Source: a bacterium
GTDB taxonomy: Bacteria; Vulcanimicrobiota; Xenobia; Xenobiales; JADMJV01
Length of the DNA: 64,000 nt
Direction: 5' to 3'
Assembly: GCA_018266105.1 (NCBI GenBank)
Contig: JAFEBA010000015.1
Span: 472 to 64,471 of the forward strand
This document shows, in pieces, positions 21,736 to 35,969 of the stretch. Position numbers and translations under genes: made by a program. Positions within the stretch are counted from its first letter, which is position 1. Every line of letters starts with the position of its first letter. The notes below the pieces were generated by a model. It had not been told where the DNA came from. It made no database searches and saw only the letters and a program-made list of their open reading frames with translations.

Positions 21736-23406
21736 GTGTTAGTCGAGGGCGTTCCTTTTCCTGTCGGACTGGTCAAATTCGCCCAATTCGAGATCCGTGA
21801 TGCTACCCGCTGGTCAGAATCGGCTGTGCTGTTGACTGGTCTCGAGCTTTCTCCGGCAGGTAGTTTACACCAGAACACAAACCAGAGAGCTGTGCAGAAG
21901 CCACAAACGTTGCCCAAAAGCCGCTGGCTCTGGTTGTTTGTGTTGGGCTTCCTGTTCAACATGATCTATGTTGGTCTCTACTATCAGATGGACGATGAGG
22001 CCGTCTGCGTGTTGGCCGTCCAGCGCATTCTGGCCGGTGAACTTCCTTATCGAGACTTTACCTCGGATATCAGCCCGGGGTCTTATTTTTTGTCGTTGCC
22101 CTTTTTCGCACTGCTGGGCTTCGCGCCCGAAGCCATTCGCGGTTTACTGGCTCTGCTGGCCGCGCTGACCGGGCTGGTGGTGCAGGCTATTTCCAATCGC
22201 GTGATGCCGGTCAGTTGGAGATATCTGCCCTGGCTGGTCTGGGTGTGTGGTGGGCTGGCCACTCACATGATTTTTAACTATCACTGGTTTGGTGCCCTTT
22301 TTCTCAGCGCCGGAGCCTACTGTTCCATGGGCTGGTTGGAAACAGGAAGCCGGCGCTGGGGGTTGTCGCTGGGGGTCTGCGGCGGGCTTTCTTTCTGGTG
22401 TTTGCAGAGCGACGGGGCTGTGTTGGCTCTGGCCACGGTGATGCTGTGGTTGCGATTTCGGCCACGGGGGCTCCATTGGGTCTTCCTGGGGGCTCTGGCC
22501 TCTTCAATCTTGCTTTGGCTGCCGTTATTCCCGTGGAGATCGACCATCTGGAACGAGAATTTCAGAGTCATCGGCCACCATCTGGCCTCTCGTCGAACTG
22601 GCTTTCAGTTTCGCCTGGGTCCCGACATGGTCGCCGATTATCTTCGTCAACCAGCCAATCTGGTTCAGTTGTCGGGTGTGCTCTTGACGTTGGAGCGCTA
22701 CACATTTTTTTACCCGGTCCTGTTGGCCGGAGTCGTTCTGGCCGAGCGTCGTCGAGATGTCTTCTTTTGTGTGCTTTGCTACTCGGTGCTGGCATTCATG
22801 GTGGTCAACTGGCCTCGTCAGACGGTTGCTTATCTGGGATACTGTGGGGCGCTTTACGGGCTGGTCTTCTGTCGTTTGCTCTCTCTCGTTTCCTCTAAGA
22901 AGTTGCCAAAAGTGCTGGCTATTCTTACGCTGCTGCAATTTGCCCTCAATTGGCACGCCTTGAATTCACGTTTTTGCATTGCCATCCAGACTCGCAGTGG
23001 CGTCTACTGGAGTGAAAACAGGGTGGAGGCTGCTCTTATGGCCCATCTTCACGAGTGGGTTCAGCTCTACACTCCCCCGTCCACCGCGGTCTTCGCTTAT
23101 CCCTATTTCACCAGTCTTTACACGACCGAGTTTCTGGTCAACCCTACGCGCGAACCGCTCTTTGTTGAAGGTGTTTTTCCCATAGAACGAATGCGGGCGT
23201 GCAAGCAAGTGCTGAGAACCAAAAAAATCGAATACCTCTTTGTTCAACCGCTGGTGCCCGAGGCGGTCGCCGAAGTTTGCTCTCTGTCCAGTGAGGAGTT
23301 TCAGCGCGTGTCGGCAGAATGGCGGACCGAGTTGCTTGAGGACTACGAGCCGTTCCAAAAACAGGGTTCGCTCACTCTCTATCGCCGGCGCGCTGACCTT
23401 CCTTGA
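21736..23406 (+). CDS. Polytopic membrane protein resembling GT-C-fold glycosyltransferases (ArnT/PMT-like).
   Basis: About 11 predicted TM helices. An acidic DE motif sits in the first periplasmic loop (YYQMDDEAV), as in GT39/GT83 enzymes. A soluble C-terminal domain follows. The true start may be downstream of the track start. Confidence 0.45.
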   Translation: MLVEGVPFPVGLVKFAQFEIRDATRWSESAVLLTGLELSPAGSLHQNTNQRAVQKPQTLPKSRWLWLFVLGFLFNMIYVGLYYQMDDEAVCVLAVQRILAGELPYRDFTSDISPGSYFLSLPFFALLGFAPEAIRGLLALLAALTGLVVQAISNRVMPVSWRYLPWLVWVCGGLATHMIFNYHWFGALFLSAGAYCSMGWLETGSRRWGLSLGVCGGLSFWCLQSDGAVLALATVMLWLRFRPRGLHWVFLGALASSILLWLPLFPWRSTIWNENFRVIGHHLASRRTGFQFRLGPDMVADYLRQPANLVQLSGVLLTLERYTFFYPVLLAGVVLAERRRDVFFCVLCYSVLAFMVVNWPRQTVAYLGYCGALYGLVFCRLLSLVSSKKLPKVLAILTLLQFALNWHALNSRFCIAIQTRSGVYWSENRVEAALMAHLHEWVQLYTPPSTAVFAYPYFTSLYTTEFLVNPTREPLFVEGVFPIERMRACKQVLRTKKIEYLFVQPLVPEAVAEVCSLSSEEFQRVSAEWRTELLEDYEPFQKQGSLTLYRRRADLP

Positions 23407-23497: not shown

Positions 23498-23710
23498 GTG
23501 CCGAACTACAGTGAACATTACTTAGAAAATTACTACGATGACCACGAGTTCTTCGATCCGCAGTGCCGTGATCGCCGTATTCGTGAGGTCAATATGCGCA
23601 CCAAGCGCTGTCTGACCTGCCCGGGCCTGCAGGCCTGCAAGAACTATCCTGAGTTCTGGCTGCAAGGGCTGGAAGGACGCGAAGTCCTGAACGAGGCCCT
23701 GACTCGCTAA
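23498..23710 (+). CDS. Small Cys-containing hypothetical protein (70 aa).
   Basis: It has the spacing C-x15-C-x2-C-x5-C. Its stop overlaps the next start (TAATG), implying translational coupling with the esterase gene. Confidence 0.4.
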   Translation: MPNYSEHYLENYYDDHEFFDPQCRDRRIREVNMRTKRCLTCPGLQACKNYPEFWLQGLEGREVLNEALTR

Positions 23711-24441
23711 TGCGGGTCACCAAAGTCCCCTATCATAGCCAGGTCCTGAATAAGCAGATGCCCGTAGCCATCTACGGGCATTTTGGCGTTCCCGTGATGG
23801 TTTTTCCGACCGCTGATCAGGACTTTGAGGAGTACGAGCGTCAGGGGATGATTGAAACGCTCGGGCCCTTCATCAATCAGGGCATGGTCAAGCTTTTCTG
23901 CGTCTCGGCCATCAATCGCGAGAGCTGGATGAATCGTCAGATCTCGGCTCCCGAGCGGGCCTTTCGCCAGAGCCTGTATGACCGCCACGTCACCGAGGAG
24001 TTGGTGCCGCTGATCTATCACGACTGTCGGGGCAAATTGCCGATCGCCACTGTTGGCAGCAGTTTTGGCGCCTATCACGCCGCCAATGAATTGATCAAGC
24101 ATCCGGATATCTTCCGCTGGTGCATCGCAATGAGCGGCATCTATGATATGAGCAGTTACTTTGACGGGCATTTCGACCAGAACTGCCTGGAGAATAACCC
24201 TTGTGATTATCTGGCTCGCCTTCAGGATAGCAAGCGCATCAAGCAGCTCAATGAGTGCAGTATCAACATTATCTGTGGTCAGGGCCCGTGGGAGCGCGTG
24301 GAGTGGTCGCGGCAGTTGCCTCAGGCGTTGGCGCGTCGGGGTATCGAGCACAATTTTGACCTTTGGGGTCACGATGTTGCTCACGACTGGCCCTGGTGGA
24401 AGATTCAGCTCGGTCTCTACTTTCCCCGTTTGTTCAGCTGA
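23710..24441 (+). CDS. Alpha/beta-hydrolase, putative esterase family (esterase D / enterochelin-esterase-like fold).
   Basis: Nucleophile elbow GSSFGAY (GxSxG). The overall pattern resembles PF00756 esterases. Confidence 0.6.
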   Translation: MRVTKVPYHSQVLNKQMPVAIYGHFGVPVMVFPTADQDFEEYERQGMIETLGPFINQGMVKLFCVSAINRESWMNRQISAPERAFRQSLYDRHVTEELVPLIYHDCRGKLPIATVGSSFGAYHAANELIKHPDIFRWCIAMSGIYDMSSYFDGHFDQNCLENNPCDYLARLQDSKRIKQLNECSINIICGQGPWERVEWSRQLPQALARRGIEHNFDLWGHDVAHDWPWWKIQLGLYFPRLFS

Positions 24442-25037
24442 TGACTCACGAGCTGGAGCAGGAGCTCAAGTTTCAAATCGCCGGACCCGCCGAGTTCGAG
24501 AAGGTGCTGAGCTTTCTCGGACCGGCTGAGAAGTTGCTCAATCAATGCAACTACTACTTCTCTGATCGCGCTGACCGCGTTTCGCCGGATTGGTCCTTGC
24601 GTGTCCGCCAGGAGAACGATTTGTTTGAGTTGACCTTCAAGCTTGGTCAAAAACAGAGCGAGGGTTACTTCCAGGCCACCGAGGTGGAGTGTCTGGTTGA
24701 CAAAGACCAGGCCGATGAACTGCTCTATCAACCGGTCTGGAGCGAGACTCTTTGGGAGCTGCCTCCGTTACAGCGTCTGCGTCAGGAATTTGGGGTTGAG
24801 CGTCTGGTTTTACTGGGTTCGCTGCGTAACCAGCGCCACCGTTGCCCTCAGGCGGGCGGTTGGGTGGCTGAACTGGATATCACCCAATTTCCTAATGGCC
24901 AGACCGACTACGAGTTGGAAGTTGAGACAGCCGACGTAGAGGGTGTACGTCAGGCGCTGAAGCCGGTGGACGAGTACCTTGCTCCTCAGTCGAAGACCAA
25001 GTTTCGCCGTTTCCTGGAGCGCTTCTCTAAGCTTTAG
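24441..25037 (+). CDS. CYTH-domain protein (triphosphate tunnel metalloenzyme; class IV adenylate cyclase / thiamine-triphosphatase-like).
   Basis: It starts ...ELEQELKFQI, the ExExK signature that opens CYTH domains. About 198 aa. The ATG overlaps the esterase stop (TGATG). Confidence 0.55.
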   Translation: MTHELEQELKFQIAGPAEFEKVLSFLGPAEKLLNQCNYYFSDRADRVSPDWSLRVRQENDLFELTFKLGQKQSEGYFQATEVECLVDKDQADELLYQPVWSETLWELPPLQRLRQEFGVERLVLLGSLRNQRHRCPQAGGWVAELDITQFPNGQTDYELEVETADVEGVRQALKPVDEYLAPQSKTKFRRFLERFSKL

Positions 25038-25728
25038 GCTCATTCCCGAGTTCGACCACCAGGGGAAGATGGTCGGAAGGTTCCTGATGATTGGGTAAAA
25101 AGGCCGATGGAGTCGGCATGGGCAGGGCCTTAACCTGTAGTTCGCGCGAGTAGAGCACGAAGTCGATGCGCCTGGGTTGGCCGTCTTTTATGAAACTGTG
25201 GTTTGGGCCGACCTGTTCGAAGGCGTCCGTCAGCCCGCTTTCCAGGCATTTGAGCACTATCGGATCGCTGCGTTCGCAGTTGAAGTCGCCGCAGATCAGG
25301 GCGGGGGGGCGCAGTCGCTCCAGTGCCTCACTGATCTGTTTGAGTCCCAAGCCCGGCCTGGCCTGAGGGGGGTCCCACTTGAGGTGGGTTGTGGCGACCA
25401 TCAGATTGGGCAACTGCAGCATCAATACCCCATGGCCCGAGCCGTCGCTGTAGTGAAGTTCGTCCCAGTTCCCTGGCAGGTGAGTAAGGATGGCGCAGCC
25501 GTCAGGCCTGTCCCCACTCTTCTTGAAGAAGCGGCCAGGCAATCCCAGTTCCTTGATCAGGTCAGGCTCCGCCTCTTGCAGGCATAGAATGTCGGCGTTG
25601 AGGGTGCGGATGCGTTCCAATAATCGTCGCCGGCGTGAGGCGGGCTCAAGGGCTTCAGGCAAGCATCCCTGATAGTAGTTGGGGTTGACGTAAGCGTTGG
25701 CGAGAACGTTGTAGCTGACCAGCCTCAT
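25027..25728 (-). CDS. Endonuclease/exonuclease/phosphatase (EEP) family protein.
   Basis: Motifs LCLQEAEPD, GDFN and SDHLPLVVEL are characteristic of the EEP fold. Confidence 0.8.
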   Translation of the reverse strand: MRLVSYNVLANAYVNPNYYQGCLPEALEPASRRRRLLERIRTLNADILCLQEAEPDLIKELGLPGRFFKKSGDRPDGCAILTHLPGNWDELHYSDGSGHGVLMLQLPNLMVATTHLKWDPPQARPGLGLKQISEALERLRPPALICGDFNCERSDPIVLKCLESGLTDAFEQVGPNHSFIKDGQPRRIDFVLYSRELQVKALPMPTPSAFLPNHQEPSDHLPLVVELGNEPKA

Positions 25729-25925
25729 CCCATGATGTCGAGGTTTCGACCCAGGAAACGGGCTTTGCGCATCTTTTCCATGACTTCATCTGGCAGCTTG
25801 ACTTTGACCCCACAATGGGGGCAGCGGGGAGTTTTTTCAAAATCCTCAAGTCCCCATTCGGGCAGAAGCTTGCGACAATCGGGACAGGCCATTCGCTGTT
25901 CGGGTTGGATGCGTCCGAGTTCCAT
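25725..25925 (-). CDS. Small zinc-ribbon protein.
   Basis: Two CxxC pairs (CPDC...CPHC). The track ORF starts at 26036, but the first 37 codons have AT-rich, atypical codon usage, so a start at MELGRIQ (25925) or MACPDC (25892) is more likely. Confidence 0.35.
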   Translation of the reverse strand: MELGRIQPEQRMACPDCRKLLPEWGLEDFEKTPRCPHCGVKVKLPDEVMEKMRKARFLGRNLDIMG

Positions 25926-26063
25926 ATTTGTTCGAGTTCTGAGCTCGCCCTTCGATCCCTGGTGGACAGGTGTAAGAATGGGCTGAGCGGGGAATGACTG
26001 GGTTTTAGTCCGTCTGAAACGTGGAAGAAAGTTCAAGTTTCAGCCTCACCTAAGGGATCTACG

Positions 26064-27368
26064 ATGAAAAAAAACTCCGGTATTTGGGTGCTCATGCTGG
26101 CCGCTTTGACGCTGGCCTCCCTGTTCATGATCTGGGACCCCCGCTCTAATAAACTCAAGCTGCGGCTGGGTCTGGATTTGAAATCCGGATCGCACATCGC
26201 GGTACGCCTGATGGAGGCGCGCGACCCGATAACGGGTGAGGTGACGAAGGTCACTCAACGCGTTCAGGAACAGGCCGTGCTCGTCTTTCAGAAGCGCCTG
26301 AACCCCGACGGAACCAAGGAGATTGTGGTCACCCCTGAGCCTCCCGACCGTCTGATCGTCGAGATTCCCGAGGAAACGAATCTCCAGAAGGCGGAAGACC
26401 TGGTTCGCCAGGCCGCTCGCCTGGAGATCAAAGAACCACGGTATGACCCGGTGACCAAGACCACGACCTGGAAGACGGTAATGGACGGCACCGGGATCAC
26501 GGGGGCCCACGCCGAGCCCATGCCGAGCGACTCCCTCTGGCAGGTCTCGTTTAGTATGAATCGCACCGCCGCCAAGCAGTTTGGCGACATCACTCGTCGG
26601 TTGGTGGGTCGCCAGATGGCCATCTACTTTGACGGTCGCGAAGTCATGACGGCCACTGTGGAGAATCCCATCACTCAGGGCAACTGCGTGATTACCAAGA
26701 TCCGCGGCGGGGCCGACCCCAATCATCCGGGCCGCCAGCGCACGGCAGTGGAAGAGGCCACCGAGTTGGCCCAGTTGCTGAGCGCCGGTTCGCTGCCCGT
26801 GGACGTTAAAATCCTTGAATCCTATACCGTCAGCCCGACCCTGGGTGCGCAGTCGTTGCAGTACAGTCTGGAGGCGGGAGCCATCGGCCTGGGCTGCGTG
26901 TGCCTTTACATGATTGGCTATTACAAGCTGCCCGGCTTCACCGCCTCGGTTGCTCTGGTCATTTACACCATCGTGTGTCTGGCTAGTATGAACATACCTG
27001 GCCTGGAGTTCGTGCTCACGCTCCCGGGAATCGCTGGCTTTATCCTGTCAATCGGGATGGCGGTGGACGCGAATGTGCTCATTTTCGAGAGGCTCAAAGA
27101 GGAGCTTTGGGAGAACAAGCCGGTGGCTCAGGCCATCAGCATCGGGTTTGAGAAAGCCTGGCCCTCCATTCTGGACGGTCACGTCACAACCGCTGTCGGC
27201 GCTTTCATTCTCTACATCTTCGGCTCAGCCACCATTCGCGGTTTCGGATTAACCTTGCTGGTGGGCACGGCCTGGAGTCTCATCACAGCCACGCTTTTCA
27301 CGCGTTCGATGATCGACTTTGCATTCTACGGTCTCAAAGTCCAAGACCGAAAGACGTTTGGAGCTTAG
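26064..27368 (+). CDS. secD: Protein translocase subunit SecD.
   Basis: N-terminal TM helix, periplasmic domain, then six C-terminal TM helices with conserved SecD motifs (GLGCVCLYMIGYY, LPGIAGFILSIGMAVDANVLIFER). Confidence 0.85.
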   Translation: MKKNSGIWVLMLAALTLASLFMIWDPRSNKLKLRLGLDLKSGSHIAVRLMEARDPITGEVTKVTQRVQEQAVLVFQKRLNPDGTKEIVVTPEPPDRLIVEIPEETNLQKAEDLVRQAARLEIKEPRYDPVTKTTTWKTVMDGTGITGAHAEPMPSDSLWQVSFSMNRTAAKQFGDITRRLVGRQMAIYFDGREVMTATVENPITQGNCVITKIRGGADPNHPGRQRTAVEEATELAQLLSAGSLPVDVKILESYTVSPTLGAQSLQYSLEAGAIGLGCVCLYMIGYYKLPGFTASVALVIYTIVCLASMNIPGLEFVLTLPGIAGFILSIGMAVDANVLIFERLKEELWENKPVAQAISIGFEKAWPSILDGHVTTAVGAFILYIFGSATIRGFGLTLLVGTAWSLITATLFTRSMIDFAFYGLKVQDRKTFGA

Positions 27369-27372
27369 CCGT

Positions 27373-28518
27373 ATGTTCAACCTTTCACCGCTCTCCTGGG
27401 TCGGACTGATTTGCTGGATCATCGCGCTCACCTCAGCCGTGATTTGGGGCCGATCTTTCCGTCACAAGCAGCGCAATTTGATGGGCAATATGGCCATCTA
27501 CTTCACGCTATCCGGTCTGGTGCTCTGTCTGGCCGTAGGCTCGCTGGCCATGAAAGGCCTGAATTTTGGTCTTGATTTCACCGGCGGCACCATCCTGGAG
27601 CTGGGCTCCGAAAAGATGGTCACCACCACCGAGGTGCAGCAAGCTCTGGAAGACTTCAAGTCACCAGAACTTGGCGACCGAATGGTGCAGGTGGGCGACA
27701 CCATGCAAAAAGACGAGGAAGGCAAGGCTTATCAGCGCGTGGTCGTGCGTGTCACGCGTGCCCAGGCCACCCCTGAGGGCGGCAAGCAGCTGGAGAACAA
27801 AGAGCCCGCCGAGCTCGAGAAGCACCTGGCCAGCAAGCTGGGCAACCTCAAAGAGCTGGGCACCGCCAGTATCGGTCCCACCATCACCGGCGAGTTGCGT
27901 TACCACGCCTTTCTGGCGATGGGCGTGGCCATGCTCGTTCAGGGCCTGTATATCTTCCTGCGTTTCGGACTGCTCTGGCGCTACGGCATCGCCGCCAACG
28001 TGGCCATCATTCACGACGTGGTGATTATGGTCGGCCTGTATTCGTTGGCCGGTCGCCAGCTGGACTCGCCTTTCGTGGCCGCACTGCTGACGGTGGCGGG
28101 TTACTCCGTGATGGACTCGGTGGTTATTTTCGACCGAATCCGTGAAAACGATCAGTTCTATGGTGGCAAAAAGCCATTTCCGGAGATCGTCAACACTTCG
28201 GTCAATCAGACCATGTCACGTTCGGTGAATACCACCTTGACCGTGCTGATTACCCTGGTGGCCATCTATTTCTTCGGCGGCAGCACCCTGCAGAACTTCG
28301 CTTTTGCGCTGCTGGTGGGCATTACCTCGGGAGCTTACTCATCAGTCTTTGTGGCTGCACCCACGCTGGTCATCATCGATAAATACTTTAAGAGCGCCCC
28401 CAAGCCTCAAGTCAGCTACTCGGCCGCACCCGCCGAGGTTGACCCCGTTTACGAGGAAACCGGAACGGATGATGGCCCCAAACGGCGTCGAGTCCGTGGC
28501 CAGCGCCGCAAGCTGTAG
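27373..28518 (+). CDS. secF: Protein translocase subunit SecF.
   Basis: It immediately follows secD. Motifs GLDFTGGT and DVVIMVGLYS...DRIREN are present, with a C-terminal RND-like TM bundle. Start chosen at MFNLSPL. Confidence 0.85.
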   Translation: MFNLSPLSWVGLICWIIALTSAVIWGRSFRHKQRNLMGNMAIYFTLSGLVLCLAVGSLAMKGLNFGLDFTGGTILELGSEKMVTTTEVQQALEDFKSPELGDRMVQVGDTMQKDEEGKAYQRVVVRVTRAQATPEGGKQLENKEPAELEKHLASKLGNLKELGTASIGPTITGELRYHAFLAMGVAMLVQGLYIFLRFGLLWRYGIAANVAIIHDVVIMVGLYSLAGRQLDSPFVAALLTVAGYSVMDSVVIFDRIRENDQFYGGKKPFPEIVNTSVNQTMSRSVNTTLTVLITLVAIYFFGGSTLQNFAFALLVGITSGAYSSVFVAAPTLVIIDKYFKSAPKPQVSYSAAPAEVDPVYEETGTDDGPKRRRVRGQRRKL

Positions 28519-30888
28519 ATGAGTTCTCTCGGGGTGACCGTGGCCGGGCGATATCGCCTGGACGCGCTGCTGGGTAAAGGCAATCTGGGCAACGTCTATC
28601 TGGCCCAGGATCTCCAGTCGCAGCGACAGGTGACCCTGAAGCTGGCCCATTCGGTCGACCAGGCCAGCGGACGCTCCCTGTCGGTGCGGTTTCGCCGCGA
28701 GCTGGAGCTGGGGTCCAAGCTGCGGCATCCGGCCATCGTTAAACCCCTGGACGCAGGTGAGTTCCTGGGCAGCCCCTTCCTGGTTTGCGAGCACGTGGAT
28801 GGACAGTCCCTGCTGGATTGGTTCGAAAGCCAGGGGCGCAACTACGAATTGTTGGCGGGCGTCCTGGAGACGGTCCTGGAGGCCTTGTCGCTGGCCCATT
28901 CGCACAAGGTGCCCCATCGTGCTCTCAAGCCCGATCATATTCTGGTTGACCAGAACGGTCAGCCTATGGTCCTGGATTTCGGGCTTTCGGCACGTCTGGA
29001 CGATCAGATCGGTCGCTCCCCCCTGGCCCTGGCCTATTTGAGTCCTGAACAAATCCTGGGGGAGCGCGGGGACGGCCGCAGCGACTTATATGCGCTGGGG
29101 GCTATCCTCTACCACCTGGCCGCCGGAGGCCCGCCCTTCCTGGCTCCCACCAATGCTCAGATGCTGCTCTCGCATCTACATCAGCAGCCGGTGCCGCTTT
29201 CCAATCTGCCCCGCTCCGTGCCCACCTGGCTGGATCGGTTGGTGCGCCGTTTGCTGTCCAAGCATGCCGACGACCGGCCCACCAGCGCTCAGGATGTCCT
29301 CTCGCTGGTCCGCCGTCGTCCCAGTCGGGGCCCGAACATGCCCGCGGTTCTGGCGCCTCTGATGGGGCGCGAAAAGGAACTGGCTTTCCTGACCGGCTGC
29401 CTTGAAAATCTGGCCATTGGCGAAGGCAACTGCATTTGGGTATGGGGTGAAACCGGGGTGGGCAAGGCTCATCTGCTCCAGCACCTGCGCCGTCAGGCAG
29501 CGCGCGAGGTGGAGTGGCTGGAACTGGACCCGGGTGAAGTGCGCCCGCTGCACTGGATGGATTGGGTCAAGCATCCTGCTTTGGGCTTCTATCCAGACGC
29601 CAACCGACTCCATGACTGGTCTTCTCAGAAATCTCGCATTTGCGTGATTCATGGCTTCGAGCAGGCCGACGATAGCCTCTGGGGGCTGCTGGCGGATTGG
29701 GCGGATACGGCCAAGCGGACTCCGCTGCTCTTGATTCTCGTCAGTCAGAGCGCCCCCCGAGATACCTTCAGGCCGCGCCTGACCGGCGACCTCCAGGTGC
29801 AGGGATTGTCTCGCGAGCAGTGCGCCCGCCTGATCGAGGAACGCCTTTGGTCGCCTCCTCCGCCTGAGGCGGCCACATGGCTGCACCGCGTCAGCGGAGG
29901 AAGCCCGCTCTTTCTGGGGCTGCTGCTGGAAAAGGTTGAGGGGGCCTATCTGGCGGTGGATGGTCCCGCGGCACGGTGGCAGGCGCCGCCGGTTCAGATG
30001 GAAGTCGATTTGCACACCTGGCTCACGCGCGATCTGGAAGAATTGGGCGAATCCGCTGCCGATTTTTTGGCCGTGGCGGCGGTGATCGGAGCTCGCTTCC
30101 CCTACAATCTGATCAAATCGCTCTACCTGGGTGAGGAAGCTCAGTTGGAACAGTTGTTGGACCAGTTGATGCGACTGGGGTGGTTGCAGGAGAGTTGGGA
30201 CGCCGGGGTGGCCAGTCACCGCTTCACTCACCGCGCTCGCTGGCAGGCTGCCCTGGCTCAGGTGGATAAACGCCGGGCCAAGCGCCTGGCGGGCCTGGTG
30301 GGGGCATTTTTGGAGTTTCCTCAGTCCGGATCGCCGGATTGGGAACGCGCCGCCGATTACTACGAATCGGCGGCCGATCAGCGTTCTCTGCTGCGCACTC
30401 TCACTCAGTGCCTTTTGTTGGCCTGCGAGGCGGAAGAATGGGAGTGGGCCCGCGGCTGGATGAAGCGCTGCCAGCGTGCGGCTGCCTCCACGGTGGAGCG
30501 CATCTTCCCCGGCCCCTGGTATCATTTTGGCTGGCTCGGTACCAGCCCGGCTTCGGGTCCGCGCCATTTTCTGGCTACCCTGTTGGCATCCCAGGGGCGT
30601 TCCGAGGAGGCCCTGTGGTATCTGCAATTGTCACTGGAAGATAACCTGGAGGACGATCCGCCTAGATGGGTGGAGAACCTCTTGCTGCGTGTCGTATTCC
30701 AGTTGCGCGGCTGGGTTCAGCTGGGAAGGCCGTTGGGCGAATTGTTGCAAGAGGCGCGTCAGGTCGCCCGCGATAGCGGGTTTGAGCAGGGCGAGGCCCT
30801 GGCTTCGGCACTGGCCCTCCGACTGAGCCCGGGCAAAACCGGGCCGGCCGGAACTCCCACGGGGTGGTCGGAATTGGAGGGGCGATGA
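28519..30888 (+). CDS. Hanks-type protein kinase domain, predicted catalytically inactive, fused to a STAND/AAA-like NTPase module and a C-terminal helical (TPR-like) region.
   Basis: Kinase subdomains I-XI are recognisable: GKGNLGNVY, VTLK, DFG and SPE. The catalytic loop reads HRALKPDH instead of HRDLKPxN. The P-loop is GETGVGKAH (GKA rather than GK[ST]). The start codon abuts the secF stop, and the 3' end overlaps the dsbD start (ATGA). Confidence 0.8.
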   Translation: MSSLGVTVAGRYRLDALLGKGNLGNVYLAQDLQSQRQVTLKLAHSVDQASGRSLSVRFRRELELGSKLRHPAIVKPLDAGEFLGSPFLVCEHVDGQSLLDWFESQGRNYELLAGVLETVLEALSLAHSHKVPHRALKPDHILVDQNGQPMVLDFGLSARLDDQIGRSPLALAYLSPEQILGERGDGRSDLYALGAILYHLAAGGPPFLAPTNAQMLLSHLHQQPVPLSNLPRSVPTWLDRLVRRLLSKHADDRPTSAQDVLSLVRRRPSRGPNMPAVLAPLMGREKELAFLTGCLENLAIGEGNCIWVWGETGVGKAHLLQHLRRQAAREVEWLELDPGEVRPLHWMDWVKHPALGFYPDANRLHDWSSQKSRICVIHGFEQADDSLWGLLADWADTAKRTPLLLILVSQSAPRDTFRPRLTGDLQVQGLSREQCARLIEERLWSPPPPEAATWLHRVSGGSPLFLGLLLEKVEGAYLAVDGPAARWQAPPVQMEVDLHTWLTRDLEELGESAADFLAVAAVIGARFPYNLIKSLYLGEEAQLEQLLDQLMRLGWLQESWDAGVASHRFTHRARWQAALAQVDKRRAKRLAGLVGAFLEFPQSGSPDWERAADYYESAADQRSLLRTLTQCLLLACEAEEWEWARGWMKRCQRAAASTVERIFPGPWYHFGWLGTSPASGPRHFLATLLASQGRSEEALWYLQLSLEDNLEDDPPRWVENLLLRVVFQLRGWVQLGRPLGELLQEARQVARDSGFEQGEALASALALRLSPGKTGPAGTPTGWSELEGR

Positions 30889-32936
30889 AACGGATCTTAC
30901 TGTTGCTCTTATTGACCAGCCTGGCCTGGGCTCGTCCGGTGCGGGATGGACACGTTGAGGTTGAGCTGGTGGCCCAACCGGGCACCCCGGTCGCCGGCCA
31001 AACTCTGGAACTGGGCATCCATTTCAAGATGGACGAGCACTGGCATGTCTACTATAAGAATCCCGGCGCCACTGGCTACAAGCCCAAGTTCACCTGGCAT
31101 TTGCCGCCGGGTTGGAAAGCCGGCGAAGTCGCCTGGCCCGTGCCGCAGCGTCTGGTGATCGCTGACCTGCAGCAATTCGTCTACGAGAAAGAAGTGTTGC
31201 TTGCCACCAAGGTGACCGTTCCCTCCGACTTCAAAGGCGGTCCAGTCAAGCTGAGTGCCGATGTGGAGTGGTTGGCCTGCTCCGAGAGTTGCATCCCGGG
31301 CCAGGCCAAAGTTGAGCTGCAGTTGCCCGAAGAGGTCGTTCCCACCGCTCTCTTTCAACAGGCGACCGAAGAGCTTCCCCAGTCCACGGGCAACATTACT
31401 TTGCGTGCCTGGCGCCTGGAACCTAAAAAAGCTTTCCTTGAGTATCCCGGTGATACCGGAGATCGGGCCGACTTTTTCGCAGACAGCGCTGAGGCCAATT
31501 TTGACTCTGCCCCGGTCTGGCAGCCAGGCAAGGGCCTGGAAATTCCAGTTCAGGAGAAAGAGGGCAAGCTCCAAGGTGTGCTGGCCATCGAGCAGGCTGG
31601 CAAGCGCAAGGGTTTGCTGGTCGACATCCCGATTGAAGCCAAGGCTCCCGCCAGGCCTCTCTCCAACCCGGTTCCCTCGGTCCCTACCGCTGGCGGCAAT
31701 GCTGGTGTGGGCTTTTGGAGCGCTCTTTTCGGGGCCTTCCTGGCAGGCATGATCTTGAATCTGATGCCTTGCGTTTTCCCTGTCCTCAGCTTGAAGGCCC
31801 TGAGTCTGGTCCGCCATAACCAGGATGGTCCCAAAGCGCATTGGACGCAGGGCTGGGTTTACACGGCCGGCGTACTGGTCTCCATCTGGGTGATTGCAGC
31901 GCCCTTGCTGCTGGTGACCGGGACTCGCAGCCTGGGTTGGGGCTACCAGATGCAATCGCCTGTCTTTGTCACCCTGCTGGCCGGTCTGTTTTTAGGTATC
32001 GCACTCAATTTGTTTGGTCTGTTTGAAGTCGGCGAGGGGCTGACCAGACTGGCTTCGGTGGCCGAGGGGCGAAAGGGGTACTCAGAGTCGTTCTGGAGCG
32101 GTATTGTGGCCACCGTCTCGGCCACGCCCTGCACCGGACCATTCATGGGAGCCGCGCTCGGCTACGCCGTCACTCAGAGTCCCCTGGTGGCCTTTCTGGT
32201 TTTCACTTCGCTTGGCCTGGGCATCGCCTTTCCCTATCTCATCCTGTGTGGAGTCCCCGCCGCCCGCGGCTGGCTGCCACGCCCGGGGGCCTGGATGGAA
32301 AGTTTCAAGGTGGGCATGGGATTTCCGATGCTTGCGGCCATGGTCTGGTTTGTCTACATTCTGGCCAATTTGCTGTCGGCAGAAGGTCTGGGATTGGTGA
32401 TGGGCGGCCTGGTCACAATTTCCCTGGGCGCCTGGGTCTTTGGCCGTTGGGGCTATAGCACGGAGTCTTCCACTCGCTTCAAAGGCAAGTCGCTGGCTGC
32501 ACTGCTGATGCTGCTGGGGCTGGGAGGGGCGGCCGGGGTAGCCTACTCCGAGAAGTATGGCCATAACCGTCACGTACAGGTGGCTCATACTGAGGGCGGA
32601 CTGACCTGGGAGCCTTTCACTCCTGAAAAGCTGGACGAGCTGCGCAAGCAGGGCAAGCCTGTCTTCATCGATTTCACGGCCGCCTGGTGCATTAACTGCA
32701 AAGTCAACGAGAAGCTGACCCTGGCTGAAGCCTCGGTGATTCAGGCCTTCCTGCAGAAGCAGGTGGTGCTTTTAAAGGCGGATTGGACCCAACGAGACGA
32801 GACGATCGGTAAGTTCCTGGCCAGCTTTGGCCGCACCGGAGTGCCCTTTTACGTCTATTATCCGCCCAACGGAGAGCCTCGTCCGTTGCCTGAGGCCATC
32901 AGCCCTGGAATTGTGAAGTCGGCCCTGGAGCCATAG
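30885..32936 (+). CDS. dsbD: Thiol:disulfide interchange protein DsbD (periplasmic alpha domain, transmembrane beta domain, thioredoxin-like gamma domain).
   Basis: Signal peptide. TM core with LNLMPCVFPVLSLK. C-terminal thioredoxin motif AAWCINCK. Confidence 0.8.
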   Translation: MKRILLLLLLTSLAWARPVRDGHVEVELVAQPGTPVAGQTLELGIHFKMDEHWHVYYKNPGATGYKPKFTWHLPPGWKAGEVAWPVPQRLVIADLQQFVYEKEVLLATKVTVPSDFKGGPVKLSADVEWLACSESCIPGQAKVELQLPEEVVPTALFQQATEELPQSTGNITLRAWRLEPKKAFLEYPGDTGDRADFFADSAEANFDSAPVWQPGKGLEIPVQEKEGKLQGVLAIEQAGKRKGLLVDIPIEAKAPARPLSNPVPSVPTAGGNAGVGFWSALFGAFLAGMILNLMPCVFPVLSLKALSLVRHNQDGPKAHWTQGWVYTAGVLVSIWVIAAPLLLVTGTRSLGWGYQMQSPVFVTLLAGLFLGIALNLFGLFEVGEGLTRLASVAEGRKGYSESFWSGIVATVSATPCTGPFMGAALGYAVTQSPLVAFLVFTSLGLGIAFPYLILCGVPAARGWLPRPGAWMESFKVGMGFPMLAAMVWFVYILANLLSAEGLGLVMGGLVTISLGAWVFGRWGYSTESSTRFKGKSLAALLMLLGLGGAAGVAYSEKYGHNRHVQVAHTEGGLTWEPFTPEKLDELRKQGKPVFIDFTAAWCINCKVNEKLTLAEASVIQAFLQKQVVLLKADWTQRDETIGKFLASFGRTGVPFYVYYPPNGEPRPLPEAISPGIVKSALEP

Positions 32937-33354: not shown

Positions 33355-34395
33355 TTGGGCCTATCGATGTCTAAACTTGCCAATTCCTTTCTATGGGATC
33401 GCTACCAGGAGTTGGAAGGCCTGGGAGAAGGCGGCATGGGCAAGGTGATTAAGGCTCGCGACCTGGGGCTGGAGCGAGAAGTTGCCATCAAGCGCCTCCG
33501 CGACGAGCTGGGCGATGCCGAGACGGCCCAGCGCTTCTTACTGGAGGCCAGGGCCACGGGCCAGCTGGAGCATCCAAACATTCCGCCGGTGTACGAGTTG
33601 GGCAAGGACGAGGAGGGGCGCCCCTACTTTGCTCTCAAGCTGGTGCGTGGGCGCAGTCTTCAACAATTGATTGAGGGCCTGCGTCAGGGAGACCCCAAGC
33701 TTCACGAGGAATTTTCCTATATTTACCGCCTGCAGATTTTCCAGAAGGTCTGCGAGGCCGTGGCTTATGCTCACGACCGCGGGATCTTGCACCGTGATAT
33801 TAAGCCGGACAATGTCATGGTGGGGGAGCTGGGCGAGGTTTTCCTGATGGATTGGGGTCTGGCCAAAGATCAGCAGGCAGGACCAGCAGACGCCACTCAG
33901 GCCGGCTTGTTTATGGGAACGCCGATGTATGCCGCCCCCGAGCAGATCGCGGGAGAGAAGCCCTGCTCCCTTTGGGATGTGTACGCCTTGGGGGCCACCC
34001 TGTACGAATGGCTTAGCCTGAAGCCTCCTCACCGCGGCGAAAGCGTTCGTGACATTCTAACATCCGTGCTGACCGTCAAGCCGACCGACCCGGTCTTCCA
34101 CTTTCATCCGGTGCAGGGCCGCATTCCGGTCGAAATGAGTCGTCTGGTCATGAAAGCCATGCATCGTGAGCCCCAGAAGCGTTTCGCTTCGGTGCGCGAG
34201 CTGCTGACCGAGGTTCAGGATATCCTGAACGGCGAGATCAATGCGGTCTGTCCCTGCACCGTGGTCAAGTCCGGCTTCCATAGCGTGGCTCGCACCCTCG
34301 ACAATTACCCCGTCCTCGTGGTGTTGGTGATCGCCTGGGCGCTTTTCCCGCTATTCGCCCTGATCATGTTCGCCTACCGATATTTTACCGGGTAA
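33355..34395 (+). CDS. Serine/threonine protein kinase, membrane-anchored, with intact catalytic motifs.
   Basis: GEGGMGKV, AIKRL, HRDIKPDNVMV, DWGLA (a DFG variant), APEQ, and a C-terminal TM helix. Confidence 0.85.
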   Translation: MGLSMSKLANSFLWDRYQELEGLGEGGMGKVIKARDLGLEREVAIKRLRDELGDAETAQRFLLEARATGQLEHPNIPPVYELGKDEEGRPYFALKLVRGRSLQQLIEGLRQGDPKLHEEFSYIYRLQIFQKVCEAVAYAHDRGILHRDIKPDNVMVGELGEVFLMDWGLAKDQQAGPADATQAGLFMGTPMYAAPEQIAGEKPCSLWDVYALGATLYEWLSLKPPHRGESVRDILTSVLTVKPTDPVFHFHPVQGRIPVEMSRLVMKAMHREPQKRFASVRELLTEVQDILNGEINAVCPCTVVKSGFHSVARTLDNYPVLVVLVIAWALFPLFALIMFAYRYFTG

Positions 34396-34400
34396 CCCGG

Positions 34401-35969
34401 TTACGGTGTCAGCGTGTAAGCGTGGTCCTGTTTGGCCCCTTCGTCAATGTGGACTCGTCCCTGATAGGGGGTGGGGGTGCCCCACTTGTCGCCGGTGAGT
34501 TGGCCGTCCGGGCCTTTCTCCACAAAGTAGGCATGGCCGTTGCCTGAAACGACCGCCTGGTCGTGTTGACCCACCTCATCTACGCTGATGTAATCCACGT
34601 GGTGTTCCAAGCCCAGATAGAGCGGCACATTGCCGGCGATTTCTCCGTCGTTGAGGCTGAGTAACGCCTGCCCATAAGTTTGGGCACCCTGATGGTGCAT
34701 GGCCCAGGCACGTTTGGCCATCGAGGCGTAGGAAAGAGTGGCCAGCCCTTTGGTCTCGTGGGATTCTCCCGCGTAGTGGTGAGCGGTGGCAGCCGCTTCC
34801 AGCTCGCCGGGGCTGATGTTTTCGTGGAAGCCATCCTTCATGGTGACGTTGTAGCTACCGTCCGGGAGTTTCTCTACGCTCTGAAAGATGTTGCCGCCAA
34901 ACTCTTGCATGGCCGCTTTGATCAGAGCGGTGGAAGCACAGTTGCCTCGGTCCGTTTGCGAGAAGCTGGTGAATAAATCTGAGCTAATCTTGCTTTCTCC
35001 AGAAAGCACCCGATCTAATGCGGCCTGATCCTCGGCCGTGAATTGAGCTCCCACCTCAGGGCTGGGCGAGTTGGCGATCTGATCCAGATCGCCGGCAGAA
35101 ATCGTGCCGTCCTTGTAGTTGGCAGCGTTCATAAAGGAGAAAATGCTGGTGGGGTCATTGTTGCTGGCCACATCGAAGGCATTCAGATAATCTGGATTGG
35201 CCAACAAGTCTTGAGCCAGACTGCGAAATTCGCCCGGGGTGTTCTGAGCATCCGCCGCCGTACGCAGGTCATCGACACTGAACTTGTCGTTTTTGCCCCC
35301 GAGCTGGTCGAAGTATTGAAAGGCGTTCTCCCCATCGTGCTGGCGCAACAGATCTGAGCGCACTGAAGCAAAGCTGCCGAAGTCACCACCCTGCTCGTTC
35401 TGCCAGGCCTGATTGAGGTCGGCCGAGGAGATGATATAGTCCACCTTGGTTCCGGTGGCCACGTCCAGGGAGTTCATCAGAACCGGGTCGGCCAGCACGG
35501 CGGCGGCCGAGTCACGAGCCGCGACCGGGGCGTTCTGATCCCCGGCCACGCGCAGAAGGTCGGAAACCCCGATCTTGCCGTCCTGGTGGCCGTGGCTTGA
35601 GTCCAACAGGTCCAGGTTCTGCTGCAAGCCCTGAATCACGGCTGGCCGGTCGCTGGCCAGTTCGCCCGCGCCACCCTGCAACTGGCTGACCAGACTCTGG
35701 ACCTGAAACTGGGGGTGGAGAATTTGTTGGATCAGGGCCTGTCCGGGGGCACTCACGGCTCCCAACGAGGCGGCCACGGAGACTCCCATGGTGGTCGCCA
35801 GCAGAGCCTTCTTGAACTTGGAACTTTTTTTCTTGATGCGAGCTTCGGCCGGGGCGGAAATGTCCACCGAATCGGTGGGGGCTGCCGGCTTGTGGGAGTA
35901 GGGGGGGCGGACCTGCGCCGGGCGTGCCAGCGGTGAGGCTTGGGAAAGGGGGCTGACCGAATTCATCAT
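34401..35969 (-). CDS. Secreted hypothetical protein with internal about 55-aa repeats and a possible papain-like (C39-like) Cys/His peptidase domain.
   Basis: Repeats of the DLLRVAGDQNAP... / DDLRTAADAQNTP... type. A candidate nucleophile sits in GNCASTALIKAAM, with a downstream GNGHAYFV. This is pattern-level evidence only. Confidence 0.4.
   Translation of the reverse strand: MMNSVSPLSQASPLARPAQVRPPYSHKPAAPTDSVDISAPAEARIKKKSSKFKKALLATTMGVSVAASLGAVSAPGQALIQQILHPQFQVQSLVSQLQGGAGELASDRPAVIQGLQQNLDLLDSSHGHQDGKIGVSDLLRVAGDQNAPVAARDSAAAVLADPVLMNSLDVATGTKVDYIISSADLNQAWQNEQGGDFGSFASVRSDLLRQHDGENAFQYFDQLGGKNDKFSVDDLRTAADAQNTPGEFRSLAQDLLANPDYLNAFDVASNNDPTSIFSFMNAANYKDGTISAGDLDQIANSPSPEVGAQFTAEDQAALDRVLSGESKISSDLFTSFSQTDRGNCASTALIKAAMQEFGGNIFQSVEKLPDGSYNVTMKDGFHENISPGELEAAATAHHYAGESHETKGLATLSYASMAKRAWAMHHQGAQTYGQALLSLNDGEIAGNVPLYLGLEHHVDYISVDEVGQHDQAVVSGNGHAYFVEKGPDGQLTGDKWGTPTPYQGRVHIDEGAKQDHAYTLTP

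Follow-up and report, generated by a model that had tools for sequence, protein, structure and literature searches.

In eukaryotic pseudokinases of the HER3, JAK JH2 and STRADalpha class, the nucleotide-binding residues are kept, the HRD base is missing, and the nucleotide serves as a structural or conformational ligand. The pseudokinases among the bacterial Ser/Thr kinases have, as is acknowledged, hardly been studied by experiment (PMC12599244). An atlas and a review of these kinases from the Kannan laboratory distinguish seven pseudokinase families, in each of which the VAIK Lys has been lost to some extent (PMC12599244, bioRxiv 10.1101/2025.01.12.632604). Pseudokinases combined with a predicted ATPase represent a known architecture: CP1 is always fused to the COG3899 predicted ATPase (PMC12599244). 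Certain others, e.g., EssB/YukC of the type VIIb secretion system (T7SSb) and the MviN(MurJ)-linked pseudokinase ActPs3 of Mycobacterium, serve envelope or secretion machines non-catalytically (PMC12599244). Here, we describe a gene, called X below, located at positions 28519..30888 (+ strand) of a 64,000-nt stretch of Vulcanimicrobiota DNA (contig JAFEBA010000015.1, assembly GCA_018266105.1), which as a whole is referred to as the window. X lies between secF and dsbD, and its 789-aa product carries a kinase-like domain lacking the catalytic Asp and a degenerate STAND module.

The reading proposed here, to which a probability of about 0.5 is assigned, is that X is a non-catalytic, ATP-binding pseudokinase on a dead STAND scaffold, tied to DsbD/SecDF. 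It is built on the pattern of residues lost and retained in the two enzyme modules, the strong constraint on the gene, and the adjacency of X and dsbD over a large evolutionary distance. An earlier note, made from the letters of the window alone, had called such an arrangement unusual. A full-text search of a literature library for DsbD or SecDF together with a pseudokinase or a Hanks-type kinase returned nothing relevant, which agrees with that appraisal.

Kinase-like domain and STAND module of X

The product of X was characterized using Pfam profiles, an alignment to PknB of Mycobacterium tuberculosis, an ortholog alignment, dN/dS ratios and an AlphaFold2 (AF2) model. Its residues 1–270 (28519..29328, + strand, as are all features below unless stated otherwise) form the kinase-like domain, with the Pfam Pkinase profile (PF00069) matching residues 12–258 (E 7e-35; 121 bits vs. 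a cut-off of 31.7). Together with the AAA_16 match described below, this bears out the Hanks fold and the NTPase module which the earlier note had seen in this open reading frame. The register of the HRD motif was set by the phmmer alignment to PknB, where the catalytic loop HRALKPDH (28915..28938) is placed opposite HRDvKPaN; a register shift of the loop is thereby ruled out. Ala135 of X occupies the position of Asp138 of PknB, so the catalytic Asp is gone; the Mg-binding Asn is replaced by His140, and Lys137 is kept. The ATP-binding elements, also listed correctly in the note, are retained: the Gly-rich loop GKGNLGNV and the VTLK Lys41 (28573..28641), as well as the DFG motif (residues 153–155), which opens an activation loop running through LAYLSPE with the SPE motif intact (28972..29049). 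Lys41 and Glu61 of helix alphaC align with Lys40 and Glu59 of PknB, i.e., the salt-bridge pair is present. The activation loop is ~13 residues shorter than in the canonical relatives, and the P+1 Gly-Thr is replaced by LA. Overall, X has the Hanks fold, the VAIK Lys, the alphaC Glu and the DFG Asp, and it lacks the HRD Asp, the catalytic-loop Asn and a canonical activation loop with its P+1 site.

The same pattern was found throughout the X clade, which was represented by an alignment of 15 sequences (X and 14 full-length orthologs, 56–93% identity) from metagenome-assembled genomes (MAGs) of Vulcanimicrobiota/Eremiobacterota. The catalytic loop reads HR[A/S]LK[P/S]xH in 15/15 sequences, His140 being fixed in all of them and the residue preceding it varying (D, E, G or A). 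Gly21, Gly24, Lys41, Asp153, Phe154 and Gly155 are invariant. A conserved Ser/Thr phospho-acceptor was absent from the activation loop across the X orthologs. With the catalytic Asp missing from 15/15 orthologs, the suggestion that X is a pseudokinase has gained in weight, and the concordance of the 15 sequences together with dN/dS far below 1 rules out an assembly or sequencing error as well as a pseudogene. The retention of the Gly-loop, the Lys41–Glu61 pair, Lys137 and the DFG Asp points to nucleotide binding without phosphorylation: most likely, the kinase-like domain binds ATP and does not phosphorylate proteins. Judging from the motifs, the loss of phosphotransfer can be predicted with good confidence.

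Residues ~281–570 (29359..30228) constitute a degenerate STAND nucleotide-binding oligomerization domain, comprising a nucleotide-binding domain (NBD), a helical domain and a winged helix, as indicated by AAA_16, Foldseek and secondary structure. The Pfam AAA_16 match (residues 281–335; 36.7 bits vs. a cut-off of 32.6) covers only the first 57 of the 167 profile positions. The Walker A motif GETGVGKAH (29446..29472) was read correctly in the note, which took the Ala following the Lys as a mark of degeneration. The Gly residues and the Lys of this motif are invariant in the X clade, but A, S, G, D, T or N may follow the Lys, and an ortholog 93% identical to X has GKS; hence, the Ala represents drift at a relaxed site. 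The idea of a degenerate NTPase is nevertheless strengthened by conserved losses elsewhere. In the Walker B-equivalent strand RICVIHGFE (29635..29661), both acidic residues are gone, in comparison with hhhhDDLHWAD in the canonical relatives. The equivalents in the X clade (CVIHGFEQAD, VIERFE, VLRGFE) are never acidic in the second position and have Glu in the first position in three orthologs, so there is no conserved acid. The sensor-I Arg is gone in the X clade as well (LILVSQ in X vs. TYRP/TDRP in the relatives). These two losses appear to be a stronger sign of a dead NTPase than the residue after the Walker A Lys. Deprived of these residues, the module would not be able to run the normal ADP/ATP hydrolysis switch, and the loss of NTP hydrolysis can likewise be predicted with good confidence.

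Residues ~572–770 (30232..30828) form a C-terminal helical-repeat region, delimited with the ortholog alignment and the AF2 model. It harbors the strongly conserved motifs RIFPGPWYHFGW, SGPRHFLATLLA and LEDDPPRWVENLLLRVVF. The TPR-like character ascribed to this region in the note was not confirmed at the sequence level: no Pfam TPR family matched X at E<=0.01, whereas the true TPR proteins encoded elsewhere in the window reach hundreds of bits. A canonical TPR C-terminus was thus not supported, and the region is regarded as a STAND-type helical/winged-helix/helical-repeat one. “ELEGR” was also discarded as a conserved C-terminal peptide motif, since it probably reflects the ribosome-binding site of dsbD in the DNA.

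A first AF2 run with a 16-sequence alignment modelled the C-terminal half well and the kinase domain poorly; an alignment of 96 sequences mended the latter. The resulting full-length model has a predicted local distance difference test (pLDDT) score of 89.3 and a predicted template-modelling (pTM) score of 0.71. Its kinase lobe is superimposable on PknB (target-normalised template-modelling score, TM-score, up to 0.87; rmsd 2.5 A), the bilobal fold being intact. The kinase domain is followed by the NBD, the helical domain, the winged helix and the helical repeats. This order corresponds to the STAND layout described for MalT, where an NBD, a helical domain and a winged helix precede a helical arm (PMC4381067). 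Foldseek matched the C-terminal half to Avs3, MalT (8bob_C, target-normalised TM-score 0.54), NOD2 and Apaf-1.

Selection was assessed by the Nei–Gojobori (NG86) method against the closest ortholog, in locus L087. The dN/dS ratio was 0.039 for the whole of X, and 0.017, 0.077 and 0.031 for its kinase-like, NOD-like and C-terminal parts, respectively; since dS amounts to 0.9–1.2 and is near saturation, these ratios are approximate though far below 1. For the operon neighbors, the ratios were 0.022 (secD), 0.023 (secF) and 0.069 (dsbD). The ranking of the parts was the same in three further comparisons, with dN/dS ranging within 0.04–0.14 in the comparisons still usable despite saturation. X is a maintained gene and not a decaying one, its “dead” kinase domain being, by these estimates, the most constrained part.

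The predicted secD-secF-X-dsbD operon and the branches of the family

X is the third gene of a predicted four-gene operon. The first one, secD (26064..27368), matches TIGR01129 with 305 bits, above the cut-off, and Pfam SecD_1st, SecDF_P1_head and SecD_SecF_C. It is followed by secF (27373..28518; TIGR00966 SecF, 278 bits, above the NCBIfam cut-off), whose start is placed at 27373 by the gene call and at 27319 in the mechanical open reading frame. At the secF–X junction (28516..28521), the stop codon TAG (28516–28518) directly abuts the ATG at 28519 (spacer 0), with no obvious Shine–Dalgarno sequence before the X start. At the other end (30876..30888), the sequence GGAGGGG (30876–30882) within the last codons of X is likely the ribosome-binding site of dsbD, and the stop of X overlaps the start of dsbD in ATGA (30885–30888). 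Reading both junctions thus corroborated the abutting start and the overlapping stop noticed earlier. The last gene, dsbD (30885..32936), encodes a full-length thiol:disulfide interchange protein with DsbD_N, DsbD_TM and Thioredoxin_7. The operon is delimited by a small divergent gene upstream of secD and a convergent gene downstream of dsbD. Gene spacing and synteny suggest that X is co-transcribed with secDF and dsbD.

The nearest named relatives of X were found in MAGs of Vulcanimicrobiota (formerly Eremiobacterota/WPS-2), and an identical protein is encoded on one Logan contig; the DsbD of the window is identical to a protein in an NCBI record. A scan of GTDB (one genome per species) revealed full-length relatives in seven loci, all with Vulcanimicrobiota-type genes; the other 73 loci match in the kinase domain only (up to the P-loop region). 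When residues 430–789 were taken as the phmmer query and 1.84 billion cluster representatives as the target, only 4 hits reached E<=1e-30 and only 9 reached E<=1e-10, so that the C-terminal module is confined to a few clusters; the remaining hits represent generic STAND helical/winged-helix similarity. Two of the seven GTDB records bear a Burkholderiales label. L011 (CAZYPN010000002.1; 67–73% identical to the window) and L012 (CAYRFU010000314.1; ~38–43% in X and dsbD) are titled “uncultured Burkholderiales bacterium”. By their X, secDF and dsbD genes, they group with the family members from Vulcanimicrobiota MAGs, and these labels are probably wrong.

The order secD-secF-X-dsbD was found in every ortholog locus of sufficient length (L087, L007–L011, L002/L003 and L004/L005), and the contig-truncated loci L088 and L089 have secD-secF-X up to the contig end. 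The secF–X spacing is 0 or -1 nt in six loci (the window, L087, L007, L008, L009 and L089), 9–11 nt in three, and 110 nt in one (L002). X and dsbD overlap by 4 nt (ATGA/GTGA) in six loci (the window, L087, L007–L009 and L002) and are separated by 8–10 nt in two. The operon membership of X is supported by tight junctions in most orthologs and by synteny in every ortholog locus examined. The genes outside the block differ between lineages; since the surroundings have been reshuffled, the X–dsbD adjacency does not look like simple inertia.

More distant branches differ in the catalytic loop, the P-loop and the neighborhood. The HQE branch (P0016/L006/L013, L012 and P0391/L162) has HQELKPAN and GK[ST], and X is followed by dsbD and an Aldedh-like gene. 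The same gene order, with overlaps, occurs in the HRE branch (P0389/L161 and P0390/L164; HRELKPAN), where the P-loop is intact (GKT) and accompanied by DD. In the P0241 branch (L158; HRELKPTN), the P-loop Lys is replaced by Cys and a GST-like gene is inserted between X and dsbD; in the P0242 branch (L159/L160; HKELKPSN), the P-loop is destroyed and secD-secF-X occurs with no dsbD within 8 kb. The HG[TS] branch (P0400/L163; ~30% identity; HGTLKPTN, GKT) shows DLA instead of DFG, lacks the third Gly of the Gly-loop and is arranged as secD, secF, two genes, X, dsbD and an Aldedh-like gene. The HQD branch (L090–L092 and P0393/L165; ~1015–1084 aa; HQDLKPxN, GKT) has neither dsbD nor secDF within 6–8 kb. 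Accordingly, the position of the catalytic Asp is occupied by E, A, S or T, never by Asp, in the branches linked to dsbD or secDF, and HQD is the sole branch which retains the Asp and has no dsbD or secDF neighbor. As regards the STAND module, HRE retains an intact NTPase, HQE has a partly degraded one, and that of the X clade, P0241 and P0242 is dead or destroyed.

In the bootstrapped neighbor-joining tree, support was 85–100% for the whole family, 98–100% for the X clade with P0241 and P0242, 81% upon addition of HRE, and 100% for each of the HQE, HQD and HG[TS] clades. The order of the four major branches received only 32–35%, so the tree does not decide between a single and a repeated loss of the Asp. 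Three of the four major branches are linked to dsbD and devoid of the Asp; in the remaining one, the Asp is retained and the link is missing. X and dsbD, in many cases with overlapping codons, are adjacent at identities ranging from 93% to as low as ~30%. The core of the family may be interpreted, on the basis of these sequences, as a base-less kinase fold with a competent ATP site, a STAND scaffold whose NTPase is dispensable, and co-expression with DsbD.

Several observations concern the composition of these loci. The Aldedh-like gene encodes a divergent aldehyde-dehydrogenase-like protein of 520–550 aa and follows dsbD, often overlapping it, in all dsbD-linked branches other than the X clade (L006 8639–10207; L161 6011–7663; L162 6171–7781; L163 11441–13021; L164 5989–7638; L012 6318–7940). 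It is 39–88% identical among loci, with a weak or partial Pfam Aldedh match, and no ortholog of it was found in the 64-kb window. The possibility that the HQD genes are nearby paralogs of a dsbD cluster, to which an Aldedh gene located 7 kb upstream in L165 had pointed, was rejected, since this Aldedh is not of the dsbD-associated type, and none was found near L090–L092. The HQD proteins (P0243 and P0393–P0396; L091 5776–9048, L165 8001–11255) bear a long Pro/Ala/Lys-rich low-complexity C-terminal extension, and in the two loci examined (L091 and L165), a PilZ-domain gene is located at a distance of a few kb. A T2SSF/PilC-type platform gene, i.e., another envelope-machinery neighbor of X homologs, is situated directly upstream of the X homolog in L162 (54–1815) and L163 (5603–6958); L162 also has a Zn-ribbon gene. 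P0015 (749 aa, on a 6.5-kb Logan contig), in which the C-terminus of X is joined to the N-terminus of DsbD, was considered as a natural fusion and discarded as a frameshift or assembly artefact because of ~65 out-of-frame residues at the join.

As to the window itself, SecF ends (28440–28518) in a basic tail, ...GPKRRRVRGQRRKL, with the TAG directly before the ATG of X. The ending GPKRRR.RGQRR[KR]L is common to L087, L007–L009 and L089, and might either serve for docking in the cytoplasm or simply reflect a constraint of the junction. The divergent gene upstream of secD (25725–25925, - strand; 66 aa) reads MELGRIQPEQRMACPDCRKLLPEWGLEDFEKTPRCPHCGVKVKLPDEVMEKMRKARFLGRNLDIMG and is zinc-ribbon-like (CPDC…CPHC). 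The mechanical 103-aa open reading frame of this gene (TTG 26036) is probably over-extended, its relatives being called at 66–67 aa (L087 and L004), and the 66-aa start leaves ~138 nt (25926–26063) for a secD promoter. An esterase–CYTH pair (23710–25037) accompanies secDF-X-dsbD in most X-clade genomes (L002, L004, L007–L011 and L087), upstream and on the same strand, or, in L002, downstream and inverted.

A canonical Ser/Thr kinase gene (33367..34395) lies downstream of dsbD, outside the conserved unit; HRDIKPDN, DWG, APE and a C-terminal transmembrane helix uphold its earlier description as a canonical membrane-anchored kinase. Its ATG at 33367 (gene call) is probably the real start rather than the TTG at 33355; over 33355–34395, DWG replaces DFG and the membrane anchor is C-terminal, not central. 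A 522-aa open reading frame (34401–35969, - strand) lies tail-to-tail with this kinase gene, an arrangement also present in L087 (530 aa). Neither this frame nor a 556-aa one (21736–23406, + strand) matched anything in Pfam, NCBIfam or PADLOC. Elsewhere, the window represents ordinary chromosomal DNA, where CTP synthase, TruB and a GlgB-like enzyme are encoded along with two-component systems and large TPR proteins.

Proposed role of X and rival explanations

X would descend from the widespread bacterial proteins composed of a Ser/Thr kinase, AAA_16 (STAND) and helical repeats, and represent a cytoplasmic “double pseudoenzyme”. It would be made from one transcript with SecD, SecF and DsbD and be translationally coupled in most lineages. 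The nucleotide would act as a structural ligand and the helical C-terminus as an interaction surface, with X operating where DsbD and, as far as the X clade is concerned, SecDF face the cytoplasm. In the single member of the phylum that has been cultured, the envelope is Gram-negative and includes an outer membrane (PMC9758169), which makes a periplasmic role of DsbD plausible. A functional link between X and DsbD is rather probable in view of the conserved adjacency. The scaffold or regulator mechanism, which would parallel the scaffolding of envelope machines by EssB/YukC and the MviN-linked pseudokinase, is put forward as a tentative suggestion. It is doubtful, though conceivable, that the family goes further and serves DsbD (in one lineage, a SecDF–DsbD module) as a dedicated subunit on the cytoplasmic side, which gates or organizes the delivery of electrons from cytoplasm to periplasm or couples this delivery to protein export. 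In that case, a pseudokinase that senses ATP and sits on a frozen STAND scaffold would have been recruited at about the time when the ancestral kinase lost the catalytic Asp. If true, X would be the first regulatory partner of DsbD besides thioredoxin, and the Sec/Dsb pathways would have their first pseudokinase/STAND protein.

A number of points weigh against the proposed role. Kinases without canonical residues may keep activity or gain a new chemistry, as exemplified by SelO (AMPylation) and SidJ (glutamylation) (PMC12599244). The strict retention of all ATP-contacting residues together with the invariant His140 would also fit an unconventional enzyme, and the Glu occupying the Asp position in the basal branches could serve as a weak base. 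X might therefore be an active enzyme using an alternative base or His140-assisted chemistry, catalyzing AMPylation or another nucleotidyl or acyl transfer, or a weak kinase, with a component of the Sec/Dsb pathway or X itself as the target. This explanation, rather unlikely on balance, draws on the (near) invariance of the Gly-loop, Lys41, Glu61, Lys137 and the DFG Asp over deep divergence, on the fixation of His140 in the X clade and on the kinase-like domain being the most constrained one (dN/dS 0.017). It is countered by the degradation of the substrate-binding elements as well (the short activation loop, the missing P+1 Gly-Thr and phospho-acceptor). Position 135 varies (A/S; E/T elsewhere), so no replacement residue is conserved, the residue before His140 is variable (D, E, G or A), and in the linked HG[TS] branch, DFG is gone together with the third Gly of the Gly-loop. 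A decaying relic, i.e., a kinase gene on its way to a pseudogene, would account for the loss of catalytic motifs in two domains, but all orthologs have an unbroken reading frame, dN/dS is low (0.04–0.14), the C-terminal motifs are long and invariant, and identical substitutions are fixed across 56–93% identity; this extremely improbable reading is considered already refuted.

Other reservations concern the operon. A contact of X with DsbD or SecDF is hypothetical, X possesses no membrane segment, signal peptide or redox/CxxC motif, and the linkage has exceptions (L159 without dsbD; L158 with a gene between X and dsbD). A scan for promoter and terminator consensus sequences gave counts equal to the shuffle expectation and was uninformative, and dS close to saturation makes the dN/dS estimates approximate. 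The operon position might hence reflect historical hitch-hiking, X being a cytoplasmic signalling or scaffold protein whose role has nothing to do with SecDF or DsbD, e.g., an allosteric partner or decoy of active Hanks kinases encoded elsewhere in the genome, as pseudokinases commonly regulate active paralogs (reviewed in PMC12599244). The soluble nature of X and the imperfect linkage, including the GST-like insertion in L158 and the 110-nt secF–X gap in L002, would suit this possibility. It is nonetheless held to be quite unlikely, given the X–dsbD adjacency at 93% to ~30% identity in three of the four major branches amid reshuffled surroundings. In addition, the adjacent canonical kinase, suggested in the earlier note as a partner of X, is not conserved: its gene occurs only in close relatives (the window and L087) and is absent from L002 and L004. 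Some similarity to anti-phage defence proteins, either Avs-like/STAND or kinase-based, was also encountered: Avs3 was the top Foldseek match of the first model, and the PADLOC kinase models PD-T4-6 and mad6 match residues 1–270 of X. These hits cover the generic kinase domain only, the neighboring kinase scores higher on the same models, and no STAND or Avs model matched in PADLOC. Considering also the degenerate NTPase and the vertical inheritance in a housekeeping operon within an ordinary region (CTP synthase, TruB, GlgB-like), a role in defence was rejected as extremely improbable. The reading of X as a non-catalytic pseudokinase on a dead STAND scaffold, tied to DsbD/SecDF, is therefore retained as the preferred one.

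Comparison with described systems

The interest of X lies in what it makes testable, namely the retention of ATP binding by pseudokinases, the function of STAND scaffolds deprived of their switch, and the existence of unrecognized cytoplasmic partners of DsbD/SecDF. The conserved, often coupled adjacency to dsbD is an unusually clear functional lead, with the unlinked HQD branch, which keeps the Asp, as a natural control. The main limitation is that Vulcanimicrobiota/Eremiobacterota are largely uncultured, so the tests would be heterologous.

The canonical Ser/Thr kinase–AAA_16–TPR proteins (PknK-like; P0029, P0045 and P0074; Acidobacteriota and other phyla) share the domain order of X and are 24–28% identical to it over ~70% of its length (kinase, P-loop, helical and winged-helix parts). 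As far as can be judged from this similarity, they are the evident ancestors of X. Unlike X, they are ~1100–1350 aa long and have real TPR repeats, HRDxKPxN (or HQD), GT…APE and GK[ST]; in most of them, Walker B is acidic (DD/ED) and the sensor-I Arg is present. A long activation loop is found in the ~1140-aa members. No dsbD neighbor was found among the genes of this type examined.

CP1 and X were compared by architecture and description only. Similarly to X, CP1 is a cytosolic Hanks-type kinase or pseudokinase fused to COG3899 (AAA_16/STAND-type) without transmembrane segments, and some of its members lack the Asp. In contrast to X, CP1 occurs mainly in cyanobacteria and proteobacteria, often with GAF/FhlA or PAS, and ~40% of its members are pseudokinases with heterogeneous losses. 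The dsbD-linked group is Asp-less throughout, keeps the VAIK Lys and mostly retains the DFG Asp (lost in HG[TS]). In the X clade, the ATPase module itself appears dead, and the gene is locked to dsbD/secDF, a linkage unreported for CP1. The pattern of kept Lys and DFG and lost Asp and Asn, the simultaneous death of the ATPase, the taxon and the linkage to dsbD/secDF are not previously described.

X resembles HER3, JAK JH2 and STRADalpha in the retained nucleotide-binding residues and the missing base, but is not related to them beyond the kinase fold; the partners of these proteins are active kinases, and ATP binding by X is a prediction. MalT shares the STAND layout but has intact Walker motifs and needs ATP binding and hydrolysis to switch and oligomerize (PMC4381067). 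EssB/YukC and ActPs3 are membrane proteins or fusions in which none of the three catalytic motifs has escaped degradation, whereas X is soluble, keeps the Lys and DFG, is fused to STAND and is connected with its putative partners by the operon only. The signature of the X family thus consists in the retention of Lys, Glu and, in most branches, DFG, with only the phosphotransfer residues lost and a second, seemingly dead enzyme module alongside.

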